A DNA stretch of 44,740 nt. Source: a virus. Taxonomy: Duplodnaviria > Heunggongvirae > Uroviricota > Caudoviricetes. Numbering within the stretch: position 1 is the stretch's first letter; every line of letters starts with the position of its first letter. The DNA lies in IMG/VR virus record IMGVR_UViG_3300009169_000014, positions 1 to 44,740 of that record, one strand, 5' to 3'. Shown in pieces: positions 839 to 8,300 of this stretch. The notes under the pieces are model-generated. The model had not been told where the DNA came from and made no database searches. It was given only the letters and a program-made list of their open reading frames with translations. A program made the translations under genes and the position numbers.

Positions 839-877
839 GCCGCCCCCGGAATCCTCCGGGGCGCGGCCTTTCTTTTG
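839..877 (+). terminator. intrinsic terminator (GC hairpin gccgcccccgga/tccggggcgcggc + CTTTCTTTTG)
   Basis: 12-13 bp GC stem, 4-nt loop, T-rich tail. Confidence 0.6.
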
Positions 878-920
878 ATCAGAAATGCCTTTCCTTTTAG
901 CTCGTAGATAGCGGCTGTTT

Positions 921-931
921 TTTGGTATCAG
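921..931 (+). promoter_or_regulatory. T-run + GGTATCAG extended -10-like promoter motif
   Basis: TTTTTTGGTATCAG 36 nt upstream of ATG 968; member of recurring T-run + GGTAT motif family. Confidence 0.3.
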
Positions 932-967
932 GTCTTGAGCACCTAACACTCAAGAGAGGACACCAAA

Positions 968-1453
968 ATGACACAGCTGAAACTGATCCAACCCGAAGAA
1001 CTGGACTGGGTCAAGAAGTTCGCTGAAGAGCTTGCAGCGAACGCCGCGAAGAAGCGTTGGCGTGCCAGCCTTGATGGGCTGTGCATGCTCGGTGTCCGTC
1101 TTCCGGGGGCCTGCGGCTGCGATGACCCGCAGACGAGCTACCGCGGGGCGACCGAGGATTGGCTGCACAAGAACCACGCGGAATTCAATCGGCAGACCCG
1201 CGCCGCCATCATGGCGATCCCCGGAGCTCGGGAAGGCCTTCGGAAGGCGCTGTACCGCGACGTGCGTGGCCCGGTTTTCAGCGATGACATGCCCGAGTAC
1301 GGACGCGTGTTTCTCCGCGTCTATGGGGAGCTCATCCTCGACTTCTTGCGAGAAGAGCCGACCAAGGCGTGGTTCCGGGATCCGGCGCCGCCGGTTCCGG
1401 CGGGACAGATGTACCAGGGCACAGCTCTGCGGGACCAGCACCTGGAGCACTGA
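968..1453 (+). CDS. hypothetical protein (161 aa)
   Basis: RBS AGAGAGGA 7 nt upstream; high GC3; terminator downstream. Confidence 0.6.
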   Translation: MTQLKLIQPEELDWVKKFAEELAANAAKKRWRASLDGLCMLGVRLPGACGCDDPQTSYRGATEDWLHKNHAEFNRQTRAAIMAIPGAREGLRKALYRDVRGPVFSDDMPEYGRVFLRVYGELILDFLREEPTKAWFRDPAPPVPAGQMYQGTALRDQHLEH

Positions 1454-1456
1454 TCT

Positions 1457-1510
1457 CCTGACGGGGCCGTCCTTCGGGGCGGCCTCGTCAGGCTCGTAGT
1501 TGTTTAGTTG
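1457..1510 (+). terminator. intrinsic terminator (13-bp stem cctgacggggccg/cggcctcgtcagg, T-rich tail)
   Basis: long GC stem with one G-U, tail gttgtttagttg. Confidence 0.45.
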
Positions 1511-1531
1511 CCCAATCCGCTAGGACGCGAA

Positions 1532-1714
1532 ATGACAATCAAAGAACAGTTGGAACTTAGAGCACAGAGTCGCGCCAAGTGTCGGGCCGTTGCCGACAAG
1601 ATCGTATCACTCATTTTGAAGGAGCTGGACACCATCGAAGAGCCCCTGCAGGCGCAGACGTTGAACATGGTGGCGTCGGAGATCCAACTCGCCGTGAGAA
1701 AGGGCGGAACGTAA
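1532..1714 (+). CDS. hypothetical protein (60 aa; alt TTG start 1508)
   Basis: ATG with AGGACG upstream; stop TAA 1 nt before next ATG. Confidence 0.45.
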   Translation: MTIKEQLELRAQSRAKCRAVADKIVSLILKELDTIEEPLQAQTLNMVASEIQLAVRKGGT

Positions 1715-1715
1715 C

Positions 1716-2150
1716 ATGAGCCTGAAAGATCTGCCGATTCAACCTACGTACACTGAAGACCGTGTACGAGAGACGTACGTCAAAGAGCTCTCGGAAGTAA
1801 CCACTCCGGAGCAGCTGTGGGCCTTCGCCCTGCGCTGGCGTCCGCTGTATCTTTTGACCCCGAAACGCCGGATCGACAAGAAGAAGAAAGACGCTAAACG
1901 CTTCCGCGTCACGCAGAAGAACATGCAGAACCTCATCAGCATGAGCTGGGATCCCAAGATCGCCTTGGAGTGCATCCAGGTCAGCAGAGAAGGCCACTGC
2001 AAGCACGCGGCCCAGTACTCCTGCCCGGGGCTGCACATCATGGTCCCGGAGATCCTGCTCCACGCCCAGTTCGTGGGCCAGCACTTCGGCGTATCGACGG
2101 ACCTGGCGCTCATCCAGATGAGCGGCGGTCCGGGGGCCCTCGAGCGGTGA
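1716..2150 (+). CDS. hypothetical protein (144 aa), basic KKKK patch
   Basis: translationally coupled to upstream gene; GC3 bias. Confidence 0.55.
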   Translation: MSLKDLPIQPTYTEDRVRETYVKELSEVTTPEQLWAFALRWRPLYLLTPKRRIDKKKKDAKRFRVTQKNMQNLISMSWDPKIALECIQVSREGHCKHAAQYSCPGLHIMVPEILLHAQFVGQHFGVSTDLALIQMSGGPGALER

Positions 2151-2320
2151 ACATCTACTACGGTTCCCAGTGGTGGTCGCAGGAAGCGAGAGATCAAGGC
2201 TTCCCACGACAAGGCTTCAACTTCTACTACTCCCCGGAGCTTGAGTACTTCTCCATCAACTTCGGCTGGGGCCGCCTTCGCCTGCACTTCTCCTGCGGCT
2301 GGGGGTGGCGTTGGCAATGA
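2147..2320 (+). CDS. small W/Y/F-rich protein (57 aa, GTG start)
   Basis: GTGA start-stop overlap with upstream gene; tail of ORF 1970..2320; high GC3. Confidence 0.3.
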   Translation: MNIYYGSQWWSQEARDQGFPRQGFNFYYSPELEYFSINFGWGRLRLHFSCGWGWRWQ

Positions 2321-2736
2321 TGACCCCCGAGCTCTACTTCCCGTGCAGAAATTGTGGGCAATGGCGGCGGCAGCACGCCGGCAAGGAGCGGAAGTGCTTG
2401 TTCCAAGCTTCCCGCTTCGAGCCGACGTGGCCGATGGAGTTCTCGGCGGCCGAACGAGAGGCGACCCTGGAGCGCATGGAGCGGTTGGACCGTCAGCTCG
2501 TGGTGCGCGCCCGACAGAAAGCCGACGACCTTGAACAGGAAATCGGCAAGATTCACGATGCTGCGACGCATGGGTGTCGGCATGTCAATGATGAAGGGAT
2601 GGGGCTCTTGGAGAGGCACGCCCCCAGAGAAGGGGAGAAGTATCACGTCATCTGTTCACTCTGCGGGGAGGATTGGTATGAAAATGAAGAAGGCGAAAAG
2701 CTTCACCCAGAAGGAACTGCTGGAACTGGCGAATGA
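2317..2736 (+). CDS. zinc-ribbon protein with two CxxCG..H modules (CRNCGQWRRQHAGKERKCLF; CSLCGEDW..H)
   Basis: ATGA overlap with upstream stop; first module is the recurring CxxCG-x5-H-x-GK-x-KCLF motif. Confidence 0.55.
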   Translation: MMTPELYFPCRNCGQWRRQHAGKERKCLFQASRFEPTWPMEFSAAEREATLERMERLDRQLVVRARQKADDLEQEIGKIHDAATHGCRHVNDEGMGLLERHAPREGEKYHVICSLCGEDWYENEEGEKLHPEGTAGTGE

Positions 2737-6893: not shown

Positions 6894-7187
6894 CTATTTG
6901 ATCAAAGGTAGATTCGAGATGTACCTCCGGTAGGTAGACTTGTACGCGGGCGGGAACCCAATGGCCATGAGTTGCCCGTTGTAGGGCTCGTCTGGTTCGT
7001 TGATTCGATGGTGCGGAATGCCCGCGACTTCCAGGCGCTCAGAGAGCGAACGCAGTTCAGCCTCGTCTTGGCAGGACAGGGCGATGGCGTAGGTTCCTGG
7101 AGGGAGATTCGTGCCTGGCGATGAGTGGCCAGCGGCGTGAATCAGTTGGGCTGCTTGGGTTCCACGGGGTAGGTCCCTGCGGGTCAC
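6894..7187 (-). CDS. peptidyl-tRNA hydrolase, PTH2 family (97 aa, GTG start)
   Basis: N-terminal motif RRDLPRGTQAAQLIHAAG matches PTH2 catalytic signature R-N-DL-x-MGKGK-x-AAQ-xx-HAA; C-terminal MAIGFPP matches LAIGPxP; adjacent to tRNA cluster. Confidence 0.7.
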   Translation of the reverse strand: MTRRDLPRGTQAAQLIHAAGHSSPGTNLPPGTYAIALSCQDEAELRSLSERLEVAGIPHHRINEPDEPYNGQLMAIGFPPAYKSTYRRYISNLPLIK

Positions 7188-7313
7188 ACAGTAGTGGGTC
7201 CACGGGTCCTGAGGTGCTTCGGGCCGGACGTCAATGGTTGCTGGTCATGGGCACATCTTAGGTCTGCGAACCAGGGTGTCAAGCGCTGCTTTCAGAAAAC
7301 CGGGGCGAGCGGG

Positions 7314-7321
7314 GGTACAAG
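7314..7321 (+). promoter_or_regulatory. GGTACAAG extended -10-like element with TTCAGA -35-like 19 nt upstream
   Basis: member of recurring GGTAT/GGTAC motif; in divergent intergenic region between PTH2 and 7405 gene. Confidence 0.25.
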
Positions 7322-7404
7322 TCTATGAGCCCGAAAACTCGGGTTCGCTTCTCTTCACCCACCCGCAGTCTCCTTGCGCAAGCAAGACAAAGGACCCCTC
7401 CACC

Positions 7405-7941
7405 ATGGCCATCACCATCCCTCCCTCCGTCGCCGCGGGTTTCTCAACCGCCGGCCAAGTCGTCGCCGCCGCCGCTCCCATCGCCGCAATTGCCACCGGC
7501 ATCGGCTTCCTCGTTCAGGGGTTCAAGCCGAAGGTCACCAACTACCAGAAGGCGAAGAGCATCGCCGAGGACATCACGGCGTTCAGCGGGGCTGCGACCG
7601 CCTTGTTCAGCATCATCGATGGCGTCACCGACCGGATGTACCCGGAGCGGAAGGTCGCCGCGCAGAAGAACGATCCCGCGGTGAAGATGGCGGAGATCTT
7701 GGACCGCATGGACGCCCGACAGGCGAAGCTCGAGTTGGAGCTCGCCGCGACGAGGGCTAAGGCGGACTCGGGGGAGGTGGACGCCCGCGTCAAGGCGGCC
7801 GTTGCGGAGGCGCTCGAGTCGTACGAGGCAGCGCGGGCCGCGAAGGAAGCGGCTGCGGCTGCCGTGGCTCCGCCTGTCGTCGAGCAGAAGCCCACGACCG
7901 GGAAGCATCTCGGCGGCAAGGTGAAGAAGACCGGCACCTAG
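7405..7941 (+). CDS. membrane/coiled-coil protein (178 aa; two hydrophobic segments then Ala/Glu/Lys-rich helix)
   Basis: ATG 7405 preceded by AAAGGAC; in frame within ORF 7234..7941; GC3 bias. Confidence 0.5.
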   Translation: MAITIPPSVAAGFSTAGQVVAAAAPIAAIATGIGFLVQGFKPKVTNYQKAKSIAEDITAFSGAATALFSIIDGVTDRMYPERKVAAQKNDPAVKMAEILDRMDARQAKLELELAATRAKADSGEVDARVKAAVAEALESYEAARAAKEAAAAAVAPPVVEQKPTTGKHLGGKVKKTGT

Positions 7942-7974
7942 CAGGTAGCACCCTCCACCGCGGGGAAGAAGACT

Positions 7975-8005
7975 CAGCGCCTATGAACGGGCGCTGTTTC
8001 TTTTG
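7975..8005 (+). terminator. intrinsic terminator (cagcgcc/ggcgctg + TTTCTTTTG)
   Basis: 7-bp stem, 8-nt loop, T-rich tail. Confidence 0.6.
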
Positions 8006-8013
8006 CTTCAGCT

Positions 8014-8021
8014 GGTATACA
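8014..8021 (+). promoter_or_regulatory. GGTATACA extended -10-like element 9 nt upstream of ATG 8031 (near-leaderless start)
   Basis: directly after terminator; no room for SD between -10 and ATG. Confidence 0.35.
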
Positions 8022-8030
8022 AAGGGCGGC

Positions 8031-8258
8031 ATGGCAGCCAAACCGAAGTCCAAGAAGACCAATTTCTCTGCGTTCGCGCGGATGATGGGAAAAGCAGTCC
8101 AACTGGGCAACGAGCACAAGCAGGCGAAGCAGGCGCAGGCGACGCCGCTGGAGCTTGCTGTGGCGTTGAAGGTTCCAGGCTTCGAAGCCCGGAGCCTTCT
8201 GGTTCTTTACCTGCGAGAGGCCTATCTCGCCGGCTTCAATTTCAAAGAAAGCGATTAG
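8031..8258 (+). CDS. small basic protein (75 aa), hypothetical
   Basis: ATG in frame of ORF 7983..8258; GC3 bias; terminator downstream. Confidence 0.5.
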   Translation: MAAKPKSKKTNFSAFARMMGKAVQLGNEHKQAKQAQATPLELAVALKVPGFEARSLLVLYLREAYLAGFNFKESD

Positions 8259-8271
8259 TCTCAAGAGCGCC

Positions 8272-8300
8272 AGTCACCGTAGTGGTGACTTCTTCTTGTT
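8272..8300 (+). terminator. intrinsic terminator, stem agtcacc/ggtgact with GTAGT loop + TCTTCTTGTT
   Basis: 7-bp stem; loop GTAGT shared with hairpins at 8455, 8640, 12970. Confidence 0.55.

Follow-up and report, generated by a model that had tools for sequence, protein, structure and literature searches.

How are the small genes at the left end of IMGVR_UViG_3300009169_000014, a tailed phage (Caudoviricetes) recorded in IMG/VR, transcribed, and which RNA polymerase reads the short box that recurs between them? The stretch analyzed, hereafter called the window, comprises positions 1 to 44,740 of that record (44.7 kb, approximately 60% guanine plus cytosine (GC)), and its plus strand carries intergenic copies of a box beginning with GGTAT, several of them shortly behind terminators. 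An earlier reading of the letters (the original prediction) had likened this box to an actinobacterial-type extended −10 element without a −35 and had regarded each small gene as individually insulated. Our results make it somewhat probable that GGTAT(N)AG is the −10-like core of a lineage-specific promoter, most likely read by machinery that the phage brings along or encodes. The core of the underlying observation is real and significant and the promoter reading right in kind, whereas the host-type mechanism is most likely wrong.

The repeated box and its conservation

The pattern GGTAYMMR matched the window 18 times compared to 7.35 matches expected, a number reached in none of 100 shuffled sequences. 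In line with this, GGTAT was the most enriched 5-mer, T-runs aside, of plus-strand intergenic DNA (8 of 16 occurrences, p = 1.5e-6), intergenic DNA making up 6.6% of the window, and GGTATNAG was found seven times, always in intergenic DNA and always on the plus strand. The repetition of a GGTAT-type motif, as first noted, was thereby borne out. Alignment of the sites yielded a full motif of GGTAT(N)AG-N3-(T)TGA(G/A)CC, and the consensus in this phage, nnAAAA, N14, GGTAT(N)AG, N3, TTGAGCC, is longer than originally noted. Where no terminator abuts the site, an A-rich element (CAGAAAA, CTAAAA or GGAAAA) lies exactly 14 nt 5′ of the GG, which corresponds to the −35 position with a 16-bp spacer, and at terminator-adjacent sites the T-run of the terminator fills the spacer or the −35 area. 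Sites with this composition are referred to as class A (Table 1).

Two relatives of approximately 190 kb each were employed for comparison, namely IMGVR_UViG_3300036766_000644 (loci L054 and L065) and IMGVR_UViG_3300037493_005727 (loci L055, L061 and L063). A position weight matrix (PWM) trained on the sites of the relatives only, which is partly independent as four window sites have orthologs in the training set, scored five window sites at 21–33 and site 6459 at 14.0, with 13.2 as the best value in shuffled sequence; site 19724 scored only 5.3, inside the shuffle range. The site at 156-194 obtained the top PWM score, also with the matrix built from the relatives.

Both relatives carry the same boxes at orthologous junctions despite diverged flanking intergenic DNA, and alignment of the window with L054 and L055 revealed phylogenetic footprints at five orthologous junctions. 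Site 5332 is conserved at L054 4535 and L055 10472 (equal to L061 13052), site 5742, in whose alignment a 1-nt indel precedes GAGC, at L054 5030 and L055 10066, and site 6459 at L054 5728 and L055 9266. Near-identical paralogs of site 156-194 are located at L061 2557, 3383 and 5432 and at L065 9781, and equivalents of site 924 at L061 6111 and 7505 and at L065 9068, 11977 and 13035. The strand bias of GGTATNAG was complete throughout (plus/minus counts: window 7/0, L061 9/0, L065 7/0, L054 5/0). To the left of the position equivalent to the window start, the relatives carry 6–7 further sites, many of which share about 40 nt (cAtAAAagTGATCttttttag GGTATTAG acTTGAaCC). In the loci of the relatives that hold structural modules (327 kb), GnTATAAG was depleted, with 5 matches observed vs. 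24.6 expected. Directional, intergenic, placed 5′ of genes and of a tRNA pair and kept as footprints in relatives, the boxes are promoter-like, as had been proposed.

The same box was found in further large phages. In Salmonella phage Arash (53% GC), a cultured distant relative, the non-structural genes are located on the minus strand, where 30 copies of GGTATAAG were counted vs. a single one on the plus strand; for 25 of these 31 sites, the next 100 nt contain a Shine-Dalgarno sequence with a start codon, compared to 17% of random positions. The Arash consensus reads ttCCAataa-N13/14-GGTATAAG-tAAagTGTAaac, with the ccAAtAA box 13–14 nt 5′ of GGTATAAG; that of Vibrio phage D69 (45% GC) is TCAATAA-N13/14-G(T/G/C)TATAAG. 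A further contig (L062, 56% GC) has 8 GGTATAAG sites on one strand within 7.4 kb, each located 16–25 nt before a Shine-Dalgarno sequence and an ATG. A scan of IMG/VR for the exact pattern TTTTAGGGTATNAGNNNTTGA returned four contigs only, all of 158–224 kb and L062 among them. The sole plus-strand GGTATAAG of Arash (OQ632216 11588-11595, locus L066) sits in an otherwise box-free structural module, directly 5′ of gp9-gp10, gp10 being a sigma factor of the virion.

Terminators and cassettes

Nine plus-strand terminators, each consisting of a G+C-rich hairpin directly followed by a T-run 3′ of a gene, were identified between 1 and 8.7 kb, with folding energies of −10 to −32 kcal/mol. In the stems of T4, T6, T7 and T8 (Table 1), both arms have changed and yet remain paired in L054 and L055, as judged by eye from the alignment. 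A box lies within 30 nt after a terminator at six sites (924, 4470 with TATACT, 5332, 5742, 6459 and 8014), a second short T-run at 910-923, past T2, abutting box 924; of the ten terminators counted for the statistic, GGTAT follows five, and the chance probability of at least 5 of 10 is 3.4e-8. The original prediction had counted at least seven terminator-linked boxes between 839 and 8300; the terminators are upheld by strong hairpins and covarying stems, and the count comes to six. Not among them is GGTACAAG at 7314, which had been listed as terminator-linked and lies in a divergent intergenic region with no terminator 5′. The same arrangement had been reported at 13443 and 19723, where it was not recovered, since site 13444 comes straight after a stop codon and site 19724 lies in a divergent region, neither with a terminator 5′. 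On the minus strand at 22475-22517, terminator and box are arranged as claimed.

The units predicted from these elements are listed in Table 1, where genes are named by their first position. Genes 1532-4418 form a single 11-gene block without internal terminator or box, cassettes 541-830 and 5786-6338 hold two genes each, and five cassettes hold one gene each. Insulated units with moron-like, variable small genes are thus supported, and insulation of every small gene, as originally stated, is overstated in view of the 11-gene block and the two two-gene cassettes. For genes 247, 681, 3822, 5384 and 6090, neither L061 nor L054 nor L065 holds a homolog, and the same is partly true for 5786 and 7405. 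Junctions 5332, 5742, 6459 and 7314 are conserved although the cassette genes differ among the window, L054 and L061. The extra cassettes of the relatives (L061 1-10000; L065 8000-13226) encode cREC_REC receiver-like, AAA_33 kinase-like and DnaJ-domain proteins, and their gene content varies from genome to genome.

Candidate polymerases for the box

The comparison with an actinobacterial extended −10 element (GnTAnAAT) lacking a −35 is not supported by closer alignment, as the hexamer ends in G and, where no terminator is adjacent, an A-rich −35-like box precedes the core at N14. The hexamer reads TAYNAG, with G as its final base at 7 of 7 sites in the window, 21 of 21 in the relatives and 30 in Arash. 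The pairing of A at −11 with T at −7 that characterizes sigma-70 promoters is therefore absent from the box, T at −7 being bound by sigma-70 in a pocket (PMC7598289). The box also lacks TTGACA; its G at −14/−13 is invariant, T at −15 is present in some sites only, and the −35 position is occupied by the A-rich box. On the opposite strand, a promoter of canonical sigma-70 type was detected at 7255-7282, whose −35 and −10 hexamers are conserved in four genomes (window, L055, L056 and L057), with a diverged spacer. Since this conserved TTGACA-N16-TAnnAT promoter shows that host-type promoters look different in the same phage, the phage is predicted to have two distinct promoter classes. Reading of the box by host RNA polymerase, as the original comparison implies, is made less likely by this distinct promoter and by the presence of GnTATAAG in Salmonella and Vibrio relatives that encode their own polymerase and sigma factor.

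Several further assignments were considered. A sigma-54 promoter (TGGCAC-N5-TTGC, its GG and GC strictly 10 nt apart) was rejected because GG-TTGA is one base too long, has GA instead of GC and varies in spacing by 1 nt between orthologs. TTGAGC was discarded as the −35 of a downstream promoter, as no −10 was found 17 nt 3′. A T7-like or N4-like single-subunit polymerase was dismissed as well, given that no such Pfam family was found in the window proteome and that N4-type promoter hairpins do not fit. The spacing is compatible with the TAAA-N15 arrangement of sigma-28 promoters, but the −10 lacks their CGA core. Many sites read GGGTAT, as does the −10 of SigB/SigF-type promoters; this is a weak lead, since there is no GTTTAA at the −35 and the conserved AG would not be accounted for.

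An upstream walk in three close relatives led to two polymerase genes. On contig IMGVR_UViG_3300037493_005727, whose major capsid protein-like, PTH2 and gene 1716 products are 93–96% identical to those of the window, locus L068 encodes at 38-4540 a protein of at least 1500 amino acids (aa) with RNA_pol_Rpb2_6 (2.7e-49), Rpb2_3, Rpb1_1 and Rpb1_2 domains and the metal-binding motif NADYDGD, and at 6014-7813 a 599-aa protein with Rpb1_5. Both show 33–37% identity to Arash gp206 and gp216. By position, the corresponding genes would lie approximately 9–16 kb past the right end of the window. The fused beta-beta′N protein encoded at 38-4540 contains an inserted inorganic pyrophosphatase domain (PF18823, E 7.8e-31, residues 485-604), an unusual element to be built into an RNA polymerase, and a ferritin-like gene is located immediately 3′ of it.

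Arash is annotated with polymerase subunits beta (gp206) and beta′ (gp216) and with sigma factors gp10 and gp196, and we confirmed the domains of gp216 (Rpb1_5), gp10 (Sigma70_r3) and gp196 (Sigma70_r2). Purified Arash virions contain gp206, gp216 and gp10 by mass spectrometry, with most spectra for gp206; promoters are not mentioned in that study (PMC10585845). The metagenomic mReC clade (multimeric-RNAP-encoding Caudovirales) encodes beta and beta′ of a deep-branching multisubunit polymerase, along with a related capsid protein and terminase, and was described without promoter analysis (PMC7481178). The relatives of the window phage likewise encode beta and beta′ and have an Arash-related capsid protein, a likeness by description, not by phylogeny. 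In our literature search, no promoter description was found for the Arash/mReC polymerase.

As the core is kept across hosts that differ widely in base composition, tracks the phage polymerase and sigma set and avoids late genes, it is best explained as a promoter of phage machinery. The reader would be a bacterial-type multisubunit RNA polymerase made of the beta-beta′N fusion and a separate beta′C, probably with a phage sigma-like factor. Transcription would start about 6–9 nt past the box, inside TTGAG, cover one to a few small variable genes or the tRNA pair, and end at a hairpin plus U-run, the T-run of the terminator often doubling as the T-rich spacer of the next promoter. Insulated cassettes would thereby line up at one end of the block of non-structural genes, and the cassette genes would be early if the polymerase arrived with the virion. 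The conserved terminator-promoter junctions might act as exchange points for gene shuffling, in a manner similar to the PeSLs discussed below. Reading of the box by the phage polymerase in place of the host core, delivery of this enzyme with the virion, the position of the start and recombination at the junctions are inferred from sequence comparison.

A bolder version, which we take seriously without regarding it as probable, is that GnTATAAG with an A-rich box 13–14 nt 5′ is the consensus of a virion-delivered holoenzyme of the Arash/mReC lineage of phages of about 180–200 kb. Such a promoter would be bipartite like those of sigma-70, would be hidden from host sigma-70 by a T-to-G switch at −7 that is kept across hosts ranging from Salmonella and Vibrio to unknown high-GC bacteria, and would here be fused to terminators as mobile cassettes that shuffle host-takeover genes.

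Several observations weigh against a phage-encoded reader. The window itself contains no polymerase or sigma gene according to Pfam searches of its proteome, and we infer the polymerase of the window phage from relatives with 93–96% identical shared proteins. Searches of about 75 kb of the two closest relatives by tblastn, hidden Markov model and alignment-based family scan (gp10-type) and by tblastn (gp196-type) detected no sigma homolog, which makes a sigma-guided mechanism tentative for this sub-lineage. The Arash authors pointed out that polymerase in virions could be carry-over of abundant proteins (PMC10585845). In addition, the phage has a host-type promoter and thus uses the host polymerase for something; L062 and a further contig (L064), which carry the same box, are at most putative relatives of the window phage; and the downstream part of the motif differs by lineage, with TTGAGCC here vs. 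GTGTAA in Arash.

The box could also be read by the host core enzyme together with a phage-encoded or host alternative sigma factor, as with T4 gp55, SPO1 gp28 and phiEco32 gp36, which we consider unlikely; the phage beta/beta′ enzyme would then serve another gene class, and the cassettes would be middle rather than immediate-early. A sigma-70-family-like, bipartite layout (A-rich −35-like box, 16-bp spacer, G at −14/−13) agrees with such a factor, and so do the two sigma-family proteins of Arash-group phages and the gp10-like family, which is common on large phage contigs. However, the sequence at hand from the closest relatives yielded no such factor, and gp10 is present in Arash virions along with phage beta and beta′, which suggests joint action (PMC10585845). 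It is distinctly improbable that the host sigma-70/SigA holoenzyme uses the boxes immediately after infection as ordinary, strong housekeeping promoters of extended −10 type whose −35 is weak or absent. TATAAG does differ from TATAAT at one position only, G is present at −14 as in extended −10 promoters, several sites read TGGTAT, the AT-rich DNA 5′ of the box could serve as an UP element, and host-type signals occur elsewhere in the phage (Shine-Dalgarno sequences, intrinsic terminators and the promoter at 7255-7282). Nevertheless, every class A site of three genomes has G at −7, as do 30 Arash sites, which looks like selection and not drift, the conserved host-type promoter of the same region has TTGACA and TAnnAT, and the box is kept in phages of Salmonella, Vibrio and unknown hosts with 45–61% GC and depleted in structural modules.

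That the junctions are not primarily promoters, serving as RNA processing or stability signals (5′ stem-loops or nuclease sites), as operators of a phage regulator or only as recombination modules, seems to us barely credible. The 36 nt 3′ of the box fold slightly better than shuffled sequences (−6.65 vs. −5.02 kcal/mol, p = 0.004), gene content is shuffled at the junctions, and a helix-turn-helix protein is encoded at 3822-4418. Yet the box is not palindromic, and the hairpins are short and unconserved between orthologs, L054 5030 lacking the one seen at window 5742; with so weak an excess of structure, 5′ stem-loops were rejected as the main signal. Moreover, the boxes of L062 and Arash lie 16–60 nt 5′ of start codons with Shine-Dalgarno sequences, as promoters do, and sites 7314 and 19724 are found in divergent regions where a transcript has to begin.

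Phage machinery as the reader of the box invites comparison with the phiKZ-like jumbo phages (phiKZ, AR9), whose virion beta/beta′-type polymerase has a counterpart in the distant relative Arash, and which share with the phage studied here a conserved, over-represented AT-rich element of about 10–15 nt near −10, located 5′ of non-structural operons, and conserved bases approximately 6 nt 3′, at the expected start; the AR9 consensus is AAATATATATTAT-N6-G (PMC7598289, PMC5312081). Promoters of this kind are further characterized by a start about 6 nt 3′ of the element and by transcription that resists rifampicin and requires no newly made protein. In the window phage and its relatives, too, such an over-represented near −10 element was found at non-structural operons and depleted from late genes. 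In contrast with the phiKZ-like phages, the lineage here is another one, with a capsid protein of about 300 aa, a fused beta-beta′N and an enzyme closer to cellular polymerases (mReC clade, PMC7481178), and Arash-group phages encode sigma-family proteins, of which phiKZ-like phages have none (PMC7824862). Furthermore, the promoter is bipartite here with a −35-like box, its sequence is unrelated and its starts are predicted only.

The PeSLs (promoter-early stem-loops) of T4-type phages are short units of a stem-loop terminator and an early-type promoter that recur in a plastic region among small, functionally uncharacterized genes, and they are kept while the enclosed genes differ between close relatives (PMC2839356, PMC4122927). 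In the same way, terminator and promoter-like box form one short unit at six junctions in 839-8030, with more in L061 and L065. PeSLs differ in that their promoters are early ones of host sigma-70 type, from which the box here departs; it also belongs to another phage family, and junction recombination is deduced here from gene content and not from mini-circles or breakpoints.

In Bacillus phage SPO1 (host-takeover module) and in T5 (pre-early region), dense strong promoters and terminators drive many small genes at one genome end, the same dense array layout in a large lytic phage; unlike the box, their promoters have canonical −35 and −10 elements and are read by host sigma-A/sigma-70. Single-element promoters are recognized by phage sigma factors such as T4 gp55 (TATAAATA) and phiEco32 gp36 (PMC5312081). 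Their AT-rich core is −10-like as well, deviates from TATAAT and depends on a particular phage factor, but both factors act on the host core at late or middle genes, whereas the lineage studied here also encodes a phage core and a −35-like box is present.

Feature positions, genome context and significance

Table 1. Promoter-like elements, terminators and predicted transcription units of the window.
Feature	Position	Strand	Sequence or composition	Context
Class A site	156-194	+	CAGAAAA 156-162, N14, GGTATTAG 177-184, N3, TTGAGCC 188-194	5′ of gene 247-468
Variant without TTGAGC part	228-235	+	GGTATCAG	12 nt before ATG 247; status uncertain
Class A site	924-940	+	GGTATCAG-N3-TTGAGC	5′ of gene 968-1453; PWM score 32.8
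Conserved element	4470-4486	+	CTATACTGGGGTGGTCG (TATACTGGGGTGGTCG at 4470)	5′ of gene 4514-5248; about 40 nt before start
Class A site	5312-5349	+	CTAAAA 5312-5317, N14, GGTATGAG 5332-5339, N3, TTAAGCC	5′ of gene 5384-5668
Class A site	5742-5758	+	GGTATAAG-N3-TTGAGT	5′ of genes 5786-6338
Class A site	6459-6476	+	GGTATAAG	5′ of tRNA-Thr and tRNA-Gln (6528-6672)
Sigma-70-type promoter	7255-7282	−	TTGACA-N16-TAAGAT	for PTH2-like gene 6894-7187 and minus-strand tRNAs
Class A site	7293-7331	+	CAGAAAA, N14, GGTACAAG 7314-7321, N4, TGAGCC	5′ of gene 7405-7941; no terminator 5′
Variant box	8014-8024	+	GGTATACAAAG (GGTATACA)	9 nt before ATG 8031; 4–7 nt in relatives
Variant box	13444-13451	+	GGTATACC	7 nt before ATG 13458; conserved at L061 20372
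Class A site	19703-19742	+	GGAAAA, N14, GGTATAAG 19724-19731, N4, TTGAACC	divergent intergenic; 5′ of gene 19761-20122
Terminator, then directly variant box	22483-22517, 22475-22482	−	box GGTATGGT	8 nt before ATG of gp5-like spike gene
Terminator T1	493-524	+		after gene 247-468; −19.8 kcal/mol
Terminator T2	839-876	+		after genes 541-830; −25.7 kcal/mol
Long perfect hairpin	1458-1491	+	weak T-run	after gene 968-1453; −29.9 kcal/mol; 11-gene block follows
Terminator T4	4427-4458	+		end of 11-gene block; stem covaries in L054, L055
Terminator T5	5272-5308	+		−24.1 kcal/mol
Terminator T6	5691-5729	+		compensatory stem changes in L054, L055; minus-strand terminator too
Terminator T7	6409-6455	+	18-bp stem	−32.2 kcal/mol
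Terminator T8	7975-8004	+	hairpin plus T-run	
Terminator T9	8272-8300	+	hairpin, apex CCGTAGTGG, T-rich tail	after gene 8031-8258
Terminator	8640-8666	+	hairpin plus T-run	
Predicted unit			box 177, gene 247, T1	
Predicted unit			genes 541 and 681, T2	
Predicted unit			box 924, gene 968, weak hairpin, 11-gene block, T4	
Predicted unit			TATACT element, gene 4514, T5	
Predicted unit			box 5332, gene 5384, T6	
Predicted unit			box 5742, two genes, T7	
Predicted unit			box 6459, two tRNAs	
Predicted unit			box 7314, gene 7405, T8	
Predicted unit			GGTATACA box, gene 8031, T9	

The variant boxes at 4470, 8014, 13444 and 22475 all lack the AG and TTGAGCC parts and may represent a second promoter class or weak variants. 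In the alignment of the window with L054 and L055, the element at 4470-4486 is a conserved block and the box at 8014-8024 a fully conserved one, the latter possibly giving a very short leader or a leaderless mRNA. GGGTAAAGGAG at 524 was ruled out as a promoter box, as it is the ribosome-binding site 8 nt before an ATG. The heptamer TCAAGAG is intergenic in 4 of 5 occurrences (e.g., 950, 6486 and 8260); it lies about 26 nt 3′ of boxes 924 and 6459 and also just after the stop of gene 8031, where it is kept in L054. TCAGAAA is likewise nearly confined to intergenic DNA (4 of 5).

With regard to hairpins, the 498-nt non-coding stretch 8259-8756 contains three with the same apex, CCGTAG(T/C)GG, at 8277, 8459 and 8644, and a fourth is located at 12974, all four on the plus strand with T-rich tails. 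The same four hairpins are present in L054 and L061, where their outer stems covary; they could be terminators of a special class or RNA hairpins to which a protein binds. The terminators at 493-524 and 5691-5729 and their L054/L055 orthologs share the loop and upper stem CT(C/T)GTACAGG, which suggests common descent by duplication or a recognized loop.

Two genes of the array deserve mention. Gene 4514-5248 has its own conserved promoter-like element (TATACTGGGGTGGTCG) and its own terminator, and its product (244 aa, third-position GC 0.85, 62% identical in relatives, no family match) gives the impression of a protein expressed in abundance amid the cassettes. Gene 3822-4418, for which neither of the two closest relatives has a homolog, encodes a 198-aa protein with a Cys-rich N-terminal segment and a helix-turn-helix that weakly matches sigma-70 region 4 (E 2e-4, which misses the Pfam cut-off). 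The convergent tRNA cluster at 6528-7282 comprises tRNA-Thr and tRNA-Gln on the plus strand and, on the minus strand, one tRNA whose anticodon could not be assigned, tRNA-Ile(aat) and, at 6832-6893, what may be a third fragment, and then the gene for a PTH2-like peptidyl-tRNA hydrolase. An Rfam search of the window detected tRNAs only and no further known RNA family.

The window consists of four gene blocks (plus strand, 247-14932; minus, 14929-19681; plus, 19761-20899; and a structural block on the minus strand, 20934-44718). Its proteome gave almost no matches in Pfam and PHROGs, and almost no function was obtained for the ten largest proteins (Pfam, PHROGs), three of which were also compared with PDB sequences. 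The 302-aa protein encoded at 40342-41250 is 96–97% identical to proteins of uncultured viral contigs of 168–190 kb and shares 37% identity with the major capsid protein of Arash (180.8 kb); in three Vibrio phages of 187 kb, one protein is also 37% identical to it. Because the matches of this capsid-like protein lie on such contigs and phages, the window is, judged by them, one part of a phage genome of approximately 190 kb. The window is also syntenic with Arash gp222, gp226, gp233, gp234, gp236 and gp237, and its last gene (43369-44740), cut by the window end, is a truncated gp222 homolog, the homolog in relatives being a 665-aa, gp222-like protein whose start lies about 600 nt further on.

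At the other end, positions 1-125 are of low complexity, with G and C runs (up to about 17 C), and two independent contigs identical in sequence to the window both start at about position 108, so that the first 125 nt or so look like an assembly break or artefact and not a genome end. The window start was rejected as a physical genome end, since further cassettes extend to the left in relatives and one assembly runs from its end into its start. Among cultured phages, no close DNA relative was found besides one tRNA match. A host search in genome contigs returned only three matches in metagenome-assembled genomes, of inconsistent taxonomy (Archaeoglobales, Acidimicrobiaceae and Enhydrobacter). 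No match to Gp23 or another T4-type core family was obtained for the window proteome, indicating that the phage is not T4-type.

The box would provide the first promoter consensus for a little-studied group of phages of approximately 190 kb; outside the phiKZ group, descriptions of phages that carry a cell-like beta/beta′ RNA polymerase come from genomes and one virion proteome only. With this consensus, the question of how such a polymerase finds its genes becomes directly testable, and early and middle operons could be annotated in hundreds of uncultured phage genomes of about 190 kb. The junctions would also offer compact, orthogonal promoter-terminator parts, and the cassette array would extend the PeSL idea, in which regulatory junctions serve as gene-shuffling points, beyond T4-type phages.

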